Notes: a model not told the origin generated them from the letters alone. A stretch of DNA of 43,951 bases from Bacteroidia bacterium (GCA_049243005.1 JBMLOK010000424.1:9689-53639), one strand, 5' to 3'. Counted from the first letter of the stretch, positions 4,207 through 41,169 are shown. Program-made: numbers and translations.

Positions 4207-5697
4207 TTAATTATTCATTAATTTCAAAGTAGCCAATCCGTTTTTGGCTTCCTGATGAATACTCTGTTTGTATTCGTAATTTTTGAAATTTAATACTTTG
4301 TTATAGTATGTTTTTGATTGAATTAAATCTCCATTTCTCTCACTAATATAAGCAATCTGTAAACAAGCATTTGGGAGAAAATAGGTTGGAGGAGGGCTTT
4401 GGAAATCTAAGCAGAGTTTATAATGATACCTGGCTTTGGCATCCATTTCTAATTCATGATAATTACGTGCCTGCCTGTATTCAAATTCTATTTTTTGATA
4501 GGTTGATTTTAATTCAGAAACAGAAATAGTTTGGCAAACTTGTAATGATTTTTTAAACAATCCGGCATCGGAATATAATCTGGCTTTTAAAAGGTTTTTA
4601 TTTGGATAAATTCCATTTTCTATGTCTTTACTTACAATACTTTCTTCAATCGATTGCTGATTCAGTTTTAATGATAAAGCCCTGTATACCTTATATTTTT
4701 CAAGGTTCCCTGTTAAAAGAGAATACCAGGATAGTTTGCGATAAGCATCCTTTTTTAAAAAGTTAGAGCTCGAAAATGTAACATGTTTTTTCAACCATAC
4801 ATCGCCATCCATTTCCATTAAATTGAGTTTTGCAGAACCCATTAAGTAATCAAATGTACTTATCTGTTCGAATTCCAAACTTTGTGGTTTTTTACTAATT
4901 ACTTTAATACATTCTTCAGATTGAAAACATTTTTCTGCGGTAAATGCTCTTAAATAAGCTTCAGTTATACTTTCCTGGTAATTTAATGTATGGTTTTTTA
5001 CAAAATCCCAGGTTGCTTTTTTGCTTTTCCCAAAATTTAACATCAAGTAGGAGTATGCGAAAATTGCTTCTGAATGTTCTACTTTTAAATCGGTTTTAGG
5101 TTTACTTTTTTGAATAAAATCAACCAAAATATTCATTCCTTCCTTAAAATTTCCATCTAAACCAATCGACCTTAATGCCCATTTGTATTGATCGGGAAAG
5201 GTGCCAATTGCAGCGTAAAGTAGTCCGTAATTTTTCTGGTTTGTTAAATTACCGGGTTCCTTATCTCTTACTAATTTACTATACTTAAATGCTGCTCTGA
5301 AATTGAGTGCTGCACCTATGTATTCATTAAAAACAATTTTCGCAAAACCTGATTGAAGTTCAAATTGAGAAAGAGATATCTGCTTTTGATTGCTAGTAGT
5401 TTCCCAATTATCAAACTCATTAATTCTATCATCCAATTTGGATTTATATTTTGCATAATCACTTTTATTCTGACTTATCAATAACCTATAACATTCAATA
5501 TAATTTAGGTAATACAAACTTGCCAGGTTATCCGGGTTTTGTTTGATTTCTTCCTTAATTAAGGTTTCAGCGGGAATAAGTCTTAAAGTAGATATATGTT
5601 CCTGAGCTATTAATAATCGTTTTGTAAGTTCATAATATTTTGCGGCACCAACATTTATACTGCTGAACAATAGTGAAATAAGAAGAAATTTTTTCAT
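4207..5697 (-). CDS. secreted all-alpha / TPR-like protein of unknown function
   Basis: The ORF is open to 5724, but its first 9 codons overlap the terminator hairpin of the upstream gene. Met10 (5697) gives the signal peptide MKKFLLISLLFSSINVGAA. The composition is helical-repeat-like and no catalytic motif was recognised. Confidence 0.6.
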   Translation of the reverse strand: MKKFLLISLLFSSINVGAAKYYELTKRLLIAQEHISTLRLIPAETLIKEEIKQNPDNLASLYYLNYIECYRLLISQNKSDYAKYKSKLDDRINEFDNWETTSNQKQISLSQFELQSGFAKIVFNEYIGAALNFRAAFKYSKLVRDKEPGNLTNQKNYGLLYAAIGTFPDQYKWALRSIGLDGNFKEGMNILVDFIQKSKPKTDLKVEHSEAIFAYSYLMLNFGKSKKATWDFVKNHTLNYQESITEAYLRAFTAEKCFQSEECIKVISKKPQSLEFEQISTFDYLMGSAKLNLMEMDGDVWLKKHVTFSSSNFLKKDAYRKLSWYSLLTGNLEKYKVYRALSLKLNQQSIEESIVSKDIENGIYPNKNLLKARLYSDAGLFKKSLQVCQTISVSELKSTYQKIEFEYRQARNYHELEMDAKARYHYKLCLDFQSPPPTYFLPNACLQIAYISERNGDLIQSKTYYNKVLNFKNYEYKQSIHQEAKNGLATLKLMNN

Positions 5698-5707
5698 AGA
5701 GGTGCGC

Positions 5708-5733
5708 AAAAAAAAAAGCCGCAAAATGCGGCT
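5708..5733 (-). terminator. rho-independent terminator after the zinc-ribbon gene
   Basis: Stem AGCCGC (5717-5722) and GCGGCT (5728-5733) around loop AAAAT. The A10 run on the + strand gives a U-run on the minus transcript. Confidence 0.6.
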
Positions 5734-5753: not shown

Positions 5754-6518
5754 TTAGATTTTAATATCATCAACAATTTCATCAGAAAGACCAGAATCGA
5801 TTAAAACTCTACCACAGTTTTCGCAAACGATGATTTTCTTTCTTTGTTTGATATCACTCTGACGTTGAGGAGGAATTCCTGCAAAACATCCACTGCAACT
5901 ATCTCTTTGGATGTTTGCAACTCCGATGCCATTTTTTACCCCTCTTCTAATTCTTTCGTAAGATGAAACCAAACGCTCATCAGCAACAGTAACAGCAGTA
6001 GCACGAACTTTTAATAATTCTTGCTCTTCTTTTTCTGTTTCGTTGATGATATTATCTAATTCACCTTTTTTGTTTTTCAAATCTGTTTTTCTTCCTTCTA
6101 AATCACTTTGAAGATTGTCTAAAGAAGATTTTTTCTGCTCAATGTCGAACTGAATATTTTTGATTCTTTTTTCAGCAGCCATTTGCTCAAGTCCTTGAAT
6201 TTCAATCTCTTTTGTTAGAGCTTCGTATTCACGATTGTTTTTAACATTCTCTAATTGCTTTTCGTACTTTTTTACAAGTGCTTTAGCATCAACAATTTTG
6301 TTTTTGTTAACAGAGATGCTTTCATCCATTTTTTTGATTTCGGCCTGAACATTTCCTAGTCTGGTTTCGTAACCTGCAATTTCGTCTTCAAGGTCGGATA
6401 CTTCCATTGGAAGTTCTCCGCGTACTGAACGAAGGTTATCTATTTTAGAATCAATTAATTGGAGCTTGTACAAAGCTTTCAATTTTTGTTCAATGCTGAT
6501 TTCTGTTGCGCCTGCCAT
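5754..6518 (-). CDS. coiled-coil protein with C-terminal C4 zinc ribbon (COG1579-type)
   Basis: 254 aa with a long heptad-rich region, then CSGC...x...CENCGR. It is the conserved neighbour of the Nif3-family gene. Confidence 0.8.
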   Translation of the reverse strand: MAGATEISIEQKLKALYKLQLIDSKIDNLRSVRGELPMEVSDLEDEIAGYETRLGNVQAEIKKMDESISVNKNKIVDAKALVKKYEKQLENVKNNREYEALTKEIEIQGLEQMAAEKRIKNIQFDIEQKKSSLDNLQSDLEGRKTDLKNKKGELDNIINETEKEEQELLKVRATAVTVADERLVSSYERIRRGVKNGIGVANIQRDSCSGCFAGIPPQRQSDIKQRKKIIVCENCGRVLIDSGLSDEIVDDIKI

Positions 6519-10972: not shown

Positions 10973-12349
10973 ATGGCGACTCATAAAAATAGTTTTAAAA
11001 TATTTATAGTAGAAGATGATACCTGGTATAGGAATTTCTTATCGTATTCGGTAGGATTAAATCCTGACTATGTAGTTGAGTCATTTGCTGATGGTAAAGA
11101 TTTTTTGGCCAACATTCATAAAAAGCCGGATTTAGTAACTGTTGATTACAGTTTACCAGGAATGAATGGTGCTGAATTAATCAAAAAAATCAAAGAGATT
11201 GATGACCAAATCCAAATTGTTGTAATTTCGGGTCAGGAAGACGTTGGTACAGCCGTAGAATTATTGAAGCTAGGTGTATTCGACTACATCATTAAAAATG
11301 AAGATACAAAACCTCGTTTACTCAATTCAATTTTTAATGCCCTTACCAATACCGAGCTAAGAACTGAAATTGATGAACTAAAAGAAGACCTTGGTAAAAA
11401 GTATGATTTCAGCAAAACAATTATTGGTAATAGTGATATCATAAAAAAGACCTTTTCATTAATCGAAAAGGCTGCCAGTAGCAAAATTACAGTATCAATA
11501 ACAGGAGAAACAGGAACAGGAAAAGAATTGGTAGCTAAGGCTATTCATTACCATAGCGAAAGGAAAAAAGCTGCTTTTGTTCCTGTGAATGTGGCTGCAA
11601 TTCCAAAGGATTTAATAGAAAGTGAATTGTTTGGACACGAAAAAGGTTCATTTACTGGTGCTGATGCCAGACGAATTGGGAAGTTTGAACAAGCAAATAA
11701 AGGAACTATATTTTTGGACGAAATTGGTGAGCTTGATTTAAGTTTACAGTCTAAATTATTACGTGTACTTCAAGAAAGAGAAGTTACAAGAGTGGGAGGA
11801 AATCAAACCCTTTCAATTGATGTAAGAGTGATAGTTGCCACTCATAAAAATCTTGCACAAGAAGTTCAGGAAGGAAGATTCAGAGAGGATTTGTACTATC
11901 GATTATTAGGTTTGCCTTTAGCTTTGCCTGCTTTAAGAGATAGAGGTCATGATATCATACACATATCAAAATCTTTTATTGATGAGTATTGCAGAGAAAA
12001 TAAGGTAAAGAAGTTGATTTTAAGTTCTGAAGCACAAAAGAAACTTTTGGATTATACTTATCCCGGAAACATTAGAGAGCTAAAAGCAATTATTGAATTG
12101 GCTTGTGTAATGTGTGATGATGGAGTAATTGAAGGGAAAGACATTACTTACAATTCAGAAAAATCAGTTTCGAATTTTTTAAGTAAGGAAATGACCCTTG
12201 ATGATTATAATAATTTAATCATTAAGAATTATCTTGAAAAATATGATGATAATGTTATAACAGTTGCCAAAAAACTGAATGTGGGTAAATCAACCATATA
12301 CAGAATTATGAAAACTGAAGAATTCCAAAACATTTATAAAAGCAAATAA
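10973..12349 (+). CDS. sigma-54-dependent response regulator (REC + AAA+ enhancer-binding domain + Fis-type HTH; NtrC family)
   Basis: 458 aa. Receiver domain (FIVEDD; [14 protein letters not shown]), Walker A GETGTGKE, sigma-54 contact loop [15 protein letters not shown], and C-terminal [20 protein letters not shown]. Confidence 0.9.
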
Positions 12350-12359
12350 TAAAATCTAT

Positions 12360-12740
12360 ATGAAAAAGACATTACTAGCCCTTGATGATGAAATCAGTAT
12401 CCTTAAAATTCTGGATTTCTATTTTGGAAAAACCTACAATGTTGTAGCAAAACAAAATGGAAAAGAAGCTTTAGAGTGGATGCAACAAGGCGTAATTCCT
12501 GATGTAATTGTGGCTGATATTAATATGCCTGAATTAAATGGAATTGAGTTTATTAAGCAAATTCGTTCTAGTGGATTTTTTAAAGATATTCCTTTAATTA
12601 TGTTATCAGGTAATGAAGGAAGTGCTGAGAAAATTAAGTGTCTAAAATCCGGTGCTGATGATTATTTAATTAAGCCATTCAATCCGGAAGAACTTGAAGC
12701 TCGAATTGATAATATTTTTCGTAGACTAAAAAAGGTTTAA
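12360..12740 (+). CDS. single-domain response regulator (CheY-like)
   Basis: 126 aa: LLALDDE, DVIVADINMPELNGIEF, LMLSG, YLIKPF. No output domain. Confidence 0.85.
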   Translation: MKKTLLALDDEISILKILDFYFGKTYNVVAKQNGKEALEWMQQGVIPDVIVADINMPELNGIEFIKQIRSSGFFKDIPLIMLSGNEGSAEKIKCLKSGADDYLIKPFNPEELEARIDNIFRRLKKV

Positions 12741-12743
12741 TCT

Positions 12744-13940
12744 ATGGAGGCTTCCAATAACAAACCAAGAATTGCATTTATCTCAACTGATGCAGATTCA
12801 ATTGTAGAGTTCTCTCATTTGTTTAAAGAGGAATTTGAAATTTATCATTTCGATAATATTTTTCAATTTATTCAATGGACAAACAAGAATGAACCTGTAA
12901 AATTAATTGTTCCTCATTCTGATTTGTTAGGTGTAAATGGTATTACACTTAGAAAGAATTGTAAGAATGTTCCAAATACAGCCAATGTTCCTTTTGTTTT
13001 AATTGTTGATAGAATCAATGATTCAAGCAGAAATATTGCTTTACATGAGCAATTTGCCGATATTTTTGAACGTCCGGTTAATAAGGAAGAGTTTCTTACT
13101 AGAACAAAATATTTAATTGAAAATCCTCCAAGGTACCATAAGTCAATTTTGGATGCCAGAACGGAATTCCCTAAATACCATATGCCTTTTTCAAAAAGGT
13201 TGTTTGATATTATTGTAGCCTCAATTGCTCTGATAATGTTATCACCGATTTTATTACTGATTATTATAATCATCAGTTTGGAATCTAAAGGACCTGTATT
13301 TTATGCAGCCAAACGTGTGGGAACCGGTTATGTTCTATTTGATTTCTACAAATTCAGATCGATGCGCCAGGGTGCAGATGCCATGTTGAAAAACCTGAAA
13401 CATTTGAACCAATATGCAAACGCACCAGAGGAAAAATCAATTGAAGAATATAAAACCTTTTTGTGTGATGAGTGCAAAACTGCAAATACACCATGCAGAA
13501 ACAAATTATACATGGATGGTGATATGATTTGTGAAAAAGTATTCGCTGATGTAAAAAGAATTAAAGAAGGTTCTAAATTTATTAAAATCGAAAACGATCC
13601 ACGTATTACCAAATTTGGTAAAATCCTTAGAAATACCAGTATGGATGAATTACCTCAATTAATAAATGTATTAAAAGGTGATATGAGTATTGTAGGTAAC
13701 AGACCTCTTCCATTATACGAAGCTGAAAAATTAACTACAGATCATTTCTCTTTAAGATTTCTTGCTCCTGCAGGTATTACAGGTTTATGGCAAGTAACCA
13801 AAAGAGGTAAAGGTGGCCCAATGAGTGAAGAAGAAAGAATGGAACTTGATAATGAATACGCTAAAAATTATTCATTATGGAATGATATCAAATTAATTTT
13901 GAGAACAATTCCGGCCTTGTTCCAAAAGGAAAATGTTTAA
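12744..13940 (+). CDS. priming sugar-phosphate transferase (bacterial sugar transferase / WbaP-EpsE family) with N-terminal divergent receiver-like domain
   Basis: 398 aa. The C-terminal half has the TM helix RLFDIIVASIALIMLSPILLLIIII, then GPVFYAAKRVG, KFRSM, DPRITKFG and DELPQLINVLKGDMSIVGNRPLP. The N-terminal ~125 aa has a receiver-like pattern (RIAFISTDAD; KLIVPHSDLLGVNG). Confidence 0.85.
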   Translation: MEASNNKPRIAFISTDADSIVEFSHLFKEEFEIYHFDNIFQFIQWTNKNEPVKLIVPHSDLLGVNGITLRKNCKNVPNTANVPFVLIVDRINDSSRNIALHEQFADIFERPVNKEEFLTRTKYLIENPPRYHKSILDARTEFPKYHMPFSKRLFDIIVASIALIMLSPILLLIIIIISLESKGPVFYAAKRVGTGYVLFDFYKFRSMRQGADAMLKNLKHLNQYANAPEEKSIEEYKTFLCDECKTANTPCRNKLYMDGDMICEKVFADVKRIKEGSKFIKIENDPRITKFGKILRNTSMDELPQLINVLKGDMSIVGNRPLPLYEAEKLTTDHFSLRFLAPAGITGLWQVTKRGKGGPMSEEERMELDNEYAKNYSLWNDIKLILRTIPALFQKENV

Positions 13941-13971
13941 AAAAAAAACATTCATCAAATTATTCAATAAC

Positions 13972-14003
13972 AAAAAAGGAGTTTCAAACGAAACTCCTTT
14001 TTT
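13972..14003. terminator. bidirectional rho-independent terminator between convergent genes
   Basis: Stem GGAGTTTC (13978-13985), loop AAAC, stem GAAACTCC (13990-13997), flanked by A6 and T6 runs. Confidence 0.65.
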
Positions 14004-14021
14004 GTTATACATTGATTTAAA

Positions 14022-40545: not shown

Positions 40546-41169
40546 TTAAGGTAACAATCCATTTTCATAAGCAAAACTTACTAATTGAACCCTATTTTTT
40601 AAATCCAGTTTAATTAATAAATTTCTGATATAGGTTTCAATAGATCTTGGAGAAAAGTTTAATACTTCTGCAATCTCTTCAGTTTGACTCCCTTTTGCTA
40701 ATAATTTGATGATTTGTAAGTCCCTGTCACTAAATATGAGTTTTGGATAATCAAATTTTGTATTTTCCTGAATCTCAGTTCTGAAAATTTTGTCGAAGGC
40801 CAATTCACCACTAAGACAAATGTTTATTGCCGGTAATAAACAAACTTTAATTTTAGATGAAAATCCGGTGGCTCCGAGTTTAAATAGTTGCTCCGATAAA
40901 TTATCTGAATTAAATGAACTGATCATTAAAACTTTTTGATTGGGATCCATTTGTTTGATAGCTGCTAATGTTTCGAAGCCATCCATAACCGGCATGAACA
41001 AATCCAACAATATTAAATCGAAATTTTTTCTTTGCAGTACATTTAAAGCTAGTTTCCCATTTGTAGCCCTCGAATTAAGGTCTAAATCCGGGCTTGATTT
41101 TAAAGCCGATTCTATATAATAAGCTTCTGTTGGGGTATCTTCAACTAATAGGATTTTATTCTGTTTCAC
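40546..41169 (-). CDS. NarL/FixJ-type response regulator (REC + LuxR HTH)
   Basis: 207 aa: ILLVEDTP, DLILLDLFMPVMDGFE, and the C-terminal LuxR-type HTH EEIAEVLNFSPRSIETYIRNLLIKLDLKNRVQL. Confidence 0.85.
   Translation of the reverse strand: MKQNKILLVEDTPTEAYYIESALKSSPDLDLNSRATNGKLALNVLQRKNFDLILLDLFMPVMDGFETLAAIKQMDPNQKVLMISSFNSDNLSEQLFKLGATGFSSKIKVCLLPAINICLSGELAFDKIFRTEIQENTKFDYPKLIFSDRDLQIIKLLAKGSQTEEIAEVLNFSPRSIETYIRNLLIKLDLKNRVQLVSFAYENGLLP

Follow-up and report, generated by a model that had tools for sequence, protein, structure and literature searches.

A degenerate receiver domain on a predicted exopolysaccharide-priming transferase and its constant canonical neighbor in Bacteroidota

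Priming transferases of polysaccharide pathways draw on undecaprenyl phosphate (Und-P), which is scarce and shared with peptidoglycan synthesis. The first clear case of post-translational gating of such an enzyme dates only to 2025 and concerns large dimeric enzymes: in Myxococcus xanthus, the phosphorylated single-domain receiver EpsW (EpsW~P) activates the priming phosphoglycosyl transferase (PGT) EpsZ by direct action (PMC12802240). Here, we describe a unit of three genes at positions 10973-13940 of a 43,951-nucleotide (nt) stretch of DNA from a Bacteroidia bacterium (GCA_049243005.1, JBMLOK010000424.1:9689-53639; the whole stretch is called the window below, and positions are counted from its first letter). 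The three open reading frames (ORFs) are consecutive on the plus strand, with the coordinates and the gaps of 10 and 3 nt given in a preliminary description of the sequence. They encode a sigma-54 enhancer-binding response regulator (gene 1, 10973-12349, 458 amino acids [aa]), a stand-alone receiver (gene 2, 12360-12740, 126 aa), and an initiating sugar-phosphate transferase with a receiver-type domain at its N terminus (gene 3, 12744-13940, 398 aa). We find that the receiver-type domain of the transferase is degenerate at its phosphorylation site, and that a stand-alone receiver accompanies the fused transferase at every family locus with enough flanking sequence to score.

The preliminary description had likened the unit to the Myxococcus eps locus. 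The analogy is a good one, and the 2025 EpsW~P/EpsZ result (PMC12802240) has made it stronger. Both systems have a phosphorylatable single-domain receiver that is genetically tied to the initiating monotopic PGT (monoPGT) of a Wzx/Wzy exopolysaccharide (EPS) pathway, and in both control is proposed at the committed, Und-P-consuming step through protein-protein contact. The Myxococcus eps region also contains an NtrC-like activator, EpsI/Nla24, as the preliminary description noted. EpsZ, however, is a large dimeric monoPGT with a four-transmembrane (4-TM) bundle and a cytoplasmic domain whose function is unknown (DUF), whereas the enzyme described here is of the small PglC type and carries a degenerate receiver (pseudo-receiver) instead. 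The EpsW target is a large monoPGT without a dimerizing beta-hairpin, a class to which the gene 3 enzyme does not belong. The mechanism of EpsW, in which contacts of the DUF and the catalytic domain stabilize the dimer of EpsZ, may have no counterpart here. EpsW is fed by the Dif chemosensory kinase, whereas relatives of this locus carry hybrid kinases that combine histidine kinase (HK), receiver (REC) and histidine phosphotransfer (Hpt) domains. Finally, one system belongs to Myxococcota and the other to Bacteroidota.

Two further systems bear on the transferase. As summarized in PMC12802240, the small monoPGT CapM of Staphylococcus aureus is controlled through tyrosine phosphorylation by CapB; this, too, is post-translational control of a small monoPGT by a phospho-signaling system of the same locus. 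On that summary, CapB is a bacterial tyrosine (BY) kinase that acts covalently, whereas the receiver here is of the His-Asp type and would most likely act non-covalently. Caulobacter PleD, with a canonical and a degenerate receiver ahead of an enzymatic output, is the nearest structural analog and supplies the top profile match of the fused domain. The second receiver of PleD is a non-phosphorylated adaptor packed on the phosphorylated first domain. A single chain holds both receivers of PleD, and dimerization activates its output, a GGDEF cyclase; here the receivers are separate proteins, the output is a membrane-embedded PGT, and the modeled domain orientation is off by a root-mean-square deviation (rmsd) of 11-15 Å.

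Receiver fusions of small monoPGTs were noted in a monoPGT sequence similarity network study (O'Toole et al. 2021, as cited in PMC12802240), which, to the extent of that citation, describes the same architecture of a receiver-type domain on a small monoPGT core. The architecture as such is therefore not new. The remark in the preliminary description that such a fusion is uncharacterized holds for experiment: in the literature searched, with the network study represented by that citation, we found no experimental work on the Bacteroidota receiver-PGT family. Nor did we find, in the same literature, a statement of pseudo-receiver status or of an obligate canonical partner gene for fused PGTs, and a dead receiver with an obligate live partner appears to be undescribed. 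The PglC-type enzyme of this family is small, monomeric and structurally tractable, and it combines a putative docking domain with an obligate partner.

The N-terminal domain of the transferase

Pfam recovers Response_reg in genes 1 and 2, Sigma54_activat in gene 1, and Bac_transf in gene 3 (5.8e-59), in agreement with the earlier assignment of gene 3 as the initiating transferase. It finds no Response_reg (PF00072) in the N-terminal region of gene 3 even at E<=1, and the domain falls below the gathering score of that model (30.2 bits), but other comparisons identify a receiver there. A phmmer search of Protein Data Bank (PDB) sequences matched residues 9-124 to the receiver 2zay_A (E 1.4e-5). 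A family profile built from 31 diverse N termini matched 95 PDB receivers, with PleD as the top match (4e-11) and its second receiver domain (chain residues 191-269) as the best-matching stretch. The NCBIfam full-length regulator models matched gene 3 weakly (PleD 2.7e-4, PhoB 3.2e-4), and some homologs of the window protein pass PF00072, among them one from Flavobacterium petrolei, by a narrow margin (locus L010, 30.9 bits), and the protein P0141 (56 bits).

The structural models agree. With an alignment of 116 sequences, AlphaFold2 returned a clean (beta-alpha)5 fold whose predicted local distance difference test (pLDDT) values are 79-92 per 10-residue block over residues 11-130. The modeled secondary structure runs from beta-1 at residues 9-13 to alpha-5 at 114-126; after it come a disordered linker, a long helix (residues 149-181) and a PglC-like catalytic domain. 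Foldseek superposed the domain on many receivers, including 2zay, 3gl9 and 1zes, over about 120 columns, with template modeling (TM) scores of 0.82-0.86 and an rmsd of 2.2-2.3 Å. Judged by these alignments and models, the first ~126 residues of gene 3 are a predicted receiver by descent and by fold, placed at residues 9-126 (12768-13121, plus strand). The preliminary description had called the N-terminal ~125 residues receiver-type, a reading that phmmer, the family profile, AlphaFold and Foldseek uphold while the Pfam profile misses the domain.

The phosphorylation site of this domain is degenerate. The peptides quoted for it earlier, STDAD, KLIVPHSDLLGVNG, FVLIVD and FERPV, are all present, and the residues reported at two of the usual sites are correct: Val88 replaces the Thr/Ser, and Arg110 replaces the Lys. 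The proposed phospho-acceptor, Asp60, is a different case. Four alignments, namely to 2zay with phmmer, to PleD D1 with the family profile, with hmmalign to a hidden Markov model of CheY and canonical stand-alone partners, and with MAFFT together with canonical receivers, place His58 (12915-12917) in the acceptor column. The alignments to 2zay and PleD are ungapped, and beta-3 ends at residue 58 in the AlphaFold model. Because the four alignments and the beta-3 boundary put His58 at this position, we conclude that Asp60 was mis-assigned; it occupies the acceptor+2 position and matches CheY Asn59. The acidic pocket said to be kept in STDAD is kept in part. The column reads Thr15-Asp16, so that Asp16, which lies in the beta1-alpha1 loop by the register of the AlphaFold secondary structure against CheY, is all that remains of the acidic pair.

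Across the fused family, the phosphorylation-site columns are hypervariable. Among 116 full-length homologs, the acceptor column reads Y (27 sequences), Q (17), G (15), A (13), H (11), N (8), E (7), S (6) and K (4); the Thr/Ser column reads V (59), S (18), L (15) and T (12); and the Lys column reads L (32), R (29) and K (15). Acidic residues are the commonest state of the Asp60 column (D52, E25). When distinct pairs of a fused domain and its partner receiver are counted, 11 of 79 fused domains have Asp at the acceptor, and one of 79 combines it with Ser/Thr and Lys. Conserved instead are F36, W45, G66, L69, P83, F84, D106, F108 and R120. We consider it very probable that the fused domain is a non-phosphorylatable pseudo-receiver.

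Within the 79-pair set, Glu is the commonest acceptor-column residue (19/79), and P0141 (424 aa) retains both Ser and Lys with Glu at the acceptor. This suggests Asp-to-Glu as a locked intermediate on the route to full degeneration. Since the domain is not expected to accept phosphate, annotating these PGTs as response regulators misleads. A case in point is P0004 (GCA_002256395.1, Bacteroidetes bacterium B1(2017)), a 79%-identical PGT ortholog whose NCBI name is "response regulator receiver protein"; that name is misleading for a sugar-phosphate transferase whose receiver is degenerate. In the P0004 genome, the three-gene triad is syntenic with the window on the upstream side, and EPS export genes do not come after it.

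The adjacent receiver and its pairing with the transferase

Gene 2 (12360-12740, plus strand) is a canonical stand-alone receiver of the PhoB/OmpR type, as Pfam, NCBIfam, Foldseek and its hallmark residues agree. The preliminary description had recognized it as a stand-alone receiver, and Response_reg is its only Pfam domain (6e-26, 91 bits). All hallmarks are present (D9, D10, the acceptor D53, S83 and K105), together with D101, Y102 and R115, in a residue numbering identical to that of E. coli PhoB. RpaB and PhoB are its top NCBIfam matches, and Foldseek aligned it to BeF3-activated PhoB (1zes) with TM scores of 0.92-0.95 and an rmsd of 1.1-1.3 Å. The junction with gene 3 reads TAA-TCT-ATG (12738-12746): the two genes are in the same frame, 3 nt apart.

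What the preliminary description missed is that the gene 2 receiver is conserved as a partner throughout this PGT family. Five homologs looked up one by one all had it. A scan recovered the fused form in 17 distinct genome loci and in metagenome loci. At all 17 genome loci, the next gene upstream is a same-strand partner receiver; these loci come from Sediminibacterium, Hymenobacter, Rufibacter, Flavisolibacter, two Flavobacterium, two Pedobacter, Pinibacter, Puia, a Cytophagaceae strain and metagenome-assembled genomes (MAGs). It is equally present at all 72 metagenome loci that retain 300 nt or more ahead of the PGT gene, eight more being cut off too near the PGT gene to score. The total is 89 of 89 family loci with enough flank, versus 0 of 67 ordinary PGT loci from the same scan. 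The partners are 115-157 aa long (one copy ends at a contig edge), and the receiver-PGT gap in relatives ranges from -29 to +70 nt, often as a 1-, 4- or 8-nt overlap. In contrast with the fused domains, the [DE]D-D-[ST]-K signature is complete in 71 of 79 stand-alone partners, and the beta5-alpha5 motif KPFNPxEL, which reads KPFNPEELEAR in gene 2, is ~99% conserved in the partner family.

The pair also persists in loci without a sigma-54 activator. An activator within 4 kb upstream occurs only in the close clade of the window (at least 62% PGT identity; loci L004, L087-L089, L092 and L093), where the activator-receiver-PGT triad is kept, and in Rufibacter (locus L012), where a hybrid kinase gene lies between the activator and the pair. 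The activator is thus a clade-specific, local addition to the conserved pair, and the key object is the receiver/pseudo-receiver-PGT pair rather than the triad. The tightest and only universal neighbor of the receiver is the PGT, while kinases, activator and export genes vary. A HisKA-HATPase-REC-Hpt hybrid kinase is encoded directly upstream of the pair in Hymenobacter and Rufibacter, a PAS-HK-REC kinase occupies that place in Flavisolibacter, and genes for half-size OEP-like and co-polymerase-like proteins come after the pair in many loci. The kinases illustrate what sort of phosphorelay would feed the module.

The fullest module is found in Rufibacter hautae (L012, 166-8158), with genes for an HK-REC protein, the sigma-54 activator, a PAS-HK-REC-Hpt kinase, the receiver, the pseudo-receiver-PGT, and the half-size OEP-like and co-polymerase-like proteins; this species is a good culturable model of the module. 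A different arrangement occurs in a Bacteroidota MAG, ELA624 (L015, 2350-3609), where a 155-aa canonical receiver (DD-D-S-K) is the immediate upstream neighbor of a 248-aa PGT lacking the pseudo-receiver. The locus represents either an unfused ancestral state or a secondary loss.

A proposal for control of the priming step

A dead receiver sits on the enzyme, a live one is always next to it, and the pair is independent of the transcription factor; the live receiver is therefore best seen as acting on the enzyme. That the phosphorylated partner does so directly is, in our judgment, evenly poised. In the mechanism that we propose, the three-gene unit would be a two-layer control module of the Wzx/Wzy EPS pathway, with the receiver and the pseudo-receiver-PGT as its Bacteroidota-wide core. 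A hybrid histidine kinase/Hpt phosphorelay would phosphorylate the gene 2 protein, which would then dock on the pseudo-receiver-PGT. Docking would switch the membrane-bound catalytic domain, on or off, and so gate the commitment of Und-P, and in the clade of the window gene 1 would presumably turn the same signal, or a related one, into a transcriptional output as well. The preliminary description had suggested that phosphorylation, or protein-protein mimicry of it, might act directly on the committed step. Direct phosphorylation of the fused domain is unlikely on the evidence above; the protein-protein option fares better, and control of that step in addition to transcription is plausible.

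Two residues of the pseudo-receiver suggest where such a contact might form. Asp106 (always Asp or Glu) and Arg120 (114 of 116 sequences) are among its best-conserved polar residues, and they align with D101 and R115 of PhoB. At the center of the OmpR/PhoB alpha4-beta5-alpha5 dimer lie two absolutely conserved charged residues (PMC2586830). The likeliest contact between the two proteins would be a receiver:pseudo-receiver heterodimer through the alpha4-beta5-alpha5 face, like that of PhoB or PleD. We take PhoB D101 and R115 to be the two central residues of the PhoB dimer.

A wider form of this proposal is more doubtful than its core, and we advance it tentatively: that a split receiver pair, with D101/R115 of the partner set against D106/R120 of the pseudo-receiver, gates the first membrane-committed step, that of a monomeric PglC-type PGT, for a whole Wzx/Wzy class across Bacteroidota. 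If this is true, cells would turn the use of Und-P on or off through a His-Asp phosphorelay in a matter of seconds, with no need for new transcripts. The family would then hold a second, mechanistically distinct answer to the problem solved by EpsW-EpsZ, and a rare case of a receiver:pseudo-receiver heterodimer in control of a membrane enzyme. Many culturable Bacteroidota keep the pair, Flavobacterium, Pedobacter, Hymenobacter and Sediminibacterium among them, which makes the question directly testable.

Several observations weigh against direct action of the partner on the enzyme. Adjacency and translational coupling indicate co-function, not contact, and in 8 of 79 partners (about 10%) the hallmark set is itself degenerate, at one position or at several. 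An AlphaFold model of a read-through chain (receiver-Gly-Ser-pseudo-receiver-PGT), built as a single chain from 23 paired rows (the window and 22 other in-frame loci), reached a predicted TM score of 0.40 with a linker pLDDT of 36; PleD is the top Foldseek match of this model, yet the two modeled receivers superpose on it at an rmsd of 11-15 Å only. When the read-through sequence was searched against 1.84 billion protein representatives, the 150 best contained no triple fusion of receiver, pseudo-receiver and PGT. Small monoPGTs reportedly function as monomers (PMC12802240); a dimerization mechanism like that of EpsZ may therefore not transfer, and the receiver pair would have to act on the catalytic domain across a flexible linker. 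At the MAG locus L015, the receiver stands beside a PGT that has no pseudo-receiver, and the pseudo-receiver may therefore not be the docking site. In the window itself, a Pfam search of all ORFs of at least 120 aa found no histidine kinase, and for the transcriptional layer, a GG-N10-GC scoring scan of the intergenic regions found no site upstream of any EPS gene. Mixed alignments, in which the read-through sequence was combined with unpaired receivers and PGTs, were also tried for folding and discarded as unusable, as MAFFT stacked the receiver and pseudo-receiver blocks; in these stacks His58 again lined up with the canonical acceptor Asp.

These points give some room to a different account, in which the pseudo-receiver is a constitutive structural, dimerization or membrane-organizing module, like the extra domains of large monoPGTs, and the receiver acts elsewhere in the pathway. 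There it might take up or shuttle phosphate in the kinase/Hpt relay, modulate the sigma-54 activator, or regulate the co-polymerase/export genes. Asp106 and Arg120 could equally serve pseudo-receiver homodimers, which counts against the heterodimer as well. Hpt-bearing hybrid kinases adjoin the pair in relatives, a setting in which single-domain receivers are often sinks; the half-size OEP-like and co-polymerase-like genes that come after the pair in most loci are alternative targets; and the read-through model gave no confident docking, just as no Rosetta-stone fusion was found among the representatives searched. We nevertheless think this account unlikely, if worth keeping in view. It leaves unexplained why the PGT is the sole universal neighbor of the receiver (89/89, often with overlapping stop and start codons) when none of the 67 ordinary PGTs has such a neighbor, and EpsW-EpsZ provides a precedent for a receiver of this kind acting on a PGT (PMC12802240).

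Two other accounts seem considerably less probable. Control could be essentially transcriptional, with the activator driving the EPS genes, gene 2 tuning the activator or its kinase, and the pseudo-receiver persisting as a relic. The activator is indeed intact (canonical receiver residues, AAA+ domain, GSFTGA loop and helix-turn-helix), the three genes form one unit up to a strong hairpin, and the triad is kept in the close clade. The activator is missing from most family loci, however, where the pair is universal, and a search for TGGCAC-N5-TTGC with up to two mismatches gave 27 matches in the whole window against 26.6 expected, none of them in intergenic regions of the locus. Relic status is itself unlikely because the non-catalytic residues are strongly conserved: the fold and F36, W45, P83, F84 and R120 are maintained across at least 150 clusters at 50% identity. 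On balance, we hold a purely transcriptional explanation to be very unlikely. Fainter still is the prospect that a kinase or Hpt protein phosphorylates Asp60 of the fused receiver and that this directly switches the transferase. The receiver fold is present, as are Asp16 and Asp60; Asp60 is kept in the close clade (P0004, P0017, P0021 and P0035), Asp or Glu is the commonest state of its column, and a few members of the family are more canonical, such as the F. petrolei protein and P0141 described above. Against these stand the alignment of Asp60 with CheY Asn59 rather than Asp57, the end of beta-3 at the true acceptor position, His58, the replacement of Thr by Val and of Lys by Arg, the loss of one acidic residue of two, the silence of Pfam Response_reg, and the single domain of 79 with Asp, Ser/Thr and Lys together; even P0141 has Glu at the acceptor position. 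We favor action of the partner receiver on the fused PGT, most likely non-covalent.

The catalytic part, the activator and the wider locus

The Bac_transf domain (PF02397) of gene 3 spans residues 151-393 (13194-13922, plus strand) and scores 199 bits against a cut-off of 27, the 179-position profile being stretched over 243 residues. TIGR03025 matches at 241 bits, below its cut-off, and Foldseek aligned the modeled protein to PglC (8e37_A) with an E value of 6e-11 and a TM score of 0.77. The protein has one helix with a Pro break and an Asp-Glu pair; it has neither a 4-TM bundle nor a large-monoPGT DUF, and the pseudo-receiver is its sole additional domain. From sequence and model, gene 3 is predicted to encode a small monotopic PglC-type PGT with a fused receiver-fold domain. 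Asp301-Glu302 (13644-13649) are invariant in 116 sequences and presumably form the catalytic dyad of this enzyme family. The long helix at residues 149-181 (13188-13286), outlined by AlphaFold, contains an invariant Pro168 in the motif LSP. Given the fold match to PglC, we take it to be the re-entrant membrane helix of PglC-type enzymes. The linker between the pseudo-receiver and this helix (residues 127-148, 13122-13187) has low confidence in the models, with pLDDT values below 50 at residues 132-141, and by the alignment consensus its two ends carry a conserved motif, NPP...Y..P..KR.

Within Bac_transf lies an insertion of ~65 aa with the pattern CxxC-x7-C-x11-C (residues 241-263, 13464-13532), where AlphaFold confidence is low. 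The Cys motif is kept in most of the family (consensus LCxxCxxxxxxCxxxLYxDGxxxCEK), and the clade of P0066, P0069 and P0072 has a Cys-free segment instead. The insertion is a candidate zinc knuckle. A further type of fusion in this subfamily of PGTs is seen in P0207 (615 aa), the one long hit of the triple-fusion search, in which a membrane O-acyltransferase domain (Acyl_transf_3) stands N-terminal to a closely related Bac_transf.

Gene 1 (10973-12349, plus strand) is an NtrC-family sigma-54 enhancer-binding response regulator by Pfam, NCBIfam and motif positions, as had been described. Its Pfam domains are Response_reg (8e-22), Sigma54_activat (PF00158; 4e-71, 238 bits) and AAA_lid_14 (PF25601), and a C-terminal helix-turn-helix lies at about residues 409-450, where Pfam matches are weak. 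The receiver (residues 10-112, 11000-11308) has E14-D15-D16, a putative acceptor Asp58 (in VDYS), Ser86 and Lys108. The AAA+ sigma-54 domain covers residues 150-315 (11420-11917), and the GSFTGA loop, also noted in the preliminary description, is at residues 225-230 (11645-11662). The protein thus combines a receiver, an AAA+ domain with a GAFTGA-type loop, and a helix-turn-helix, the set that defines the NtrC family.

A comparable EPS-associated regulator is that of the PrsK-PrsR system, which is associated with PEP-CTERM/XrtA (TIGR02915; PMC1569441) and likewise places an NtrC-family response regulator among EPS genes. With 365 bits, TIGR02915 ranks with the best NCBIfam models for gene 1, and its equivalog cut-off of 502.6 is not reached; Pfam on the window ORFs showed no PrsK-type kinase, exosortase or PEP-CTERM genes. 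Assignment of gene 1 as an NtrC, AtoC or PEP-CTERM PrsR (PEP_resp_reg) equivalog was rejected, as every NCBIfam score fell below the respective equivalog cut-off. The best sigma-54-like -24/-12 match of the window, TGGCATCGGAGTTGCA (5917-5931, minus strand; 10 of 11 consensus positions), lies inside a zinc-ribbon gene (5754-6518, minus strand), ~190 nt upstream of a gene for a tetratricopeptide repeat (TPR) protein (4207-5724, minus strand). It is a possible target of the activator, although a single match is within chance.

Downstream of the PGT gene, a terminator-like hairpin with a 19-bp stem and a T-run (13967-14008) separates the PGT gene from the acetyltransferase gene that converges on it. 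It probably terminates transcription in both directions, and the three-gene unit ends at it. By Pfam on the window ORFs, the surroundings form a Wzx/Wzy-type polysaccharide locus with several GT2 and GT4 glycosyltransferases, methyltransferases and an acetyltransferase, together with a Wzx-like flippase, a Wzy-like polymerase, and half-size OEP-like and co-polymerase-like proteins. Beyond the three-gene unit, the window has a single two-component gene, which encodes a REC-GerE (NarL-type) response regulator (40546-41169, minus strand) and has no kinase gene beside it.

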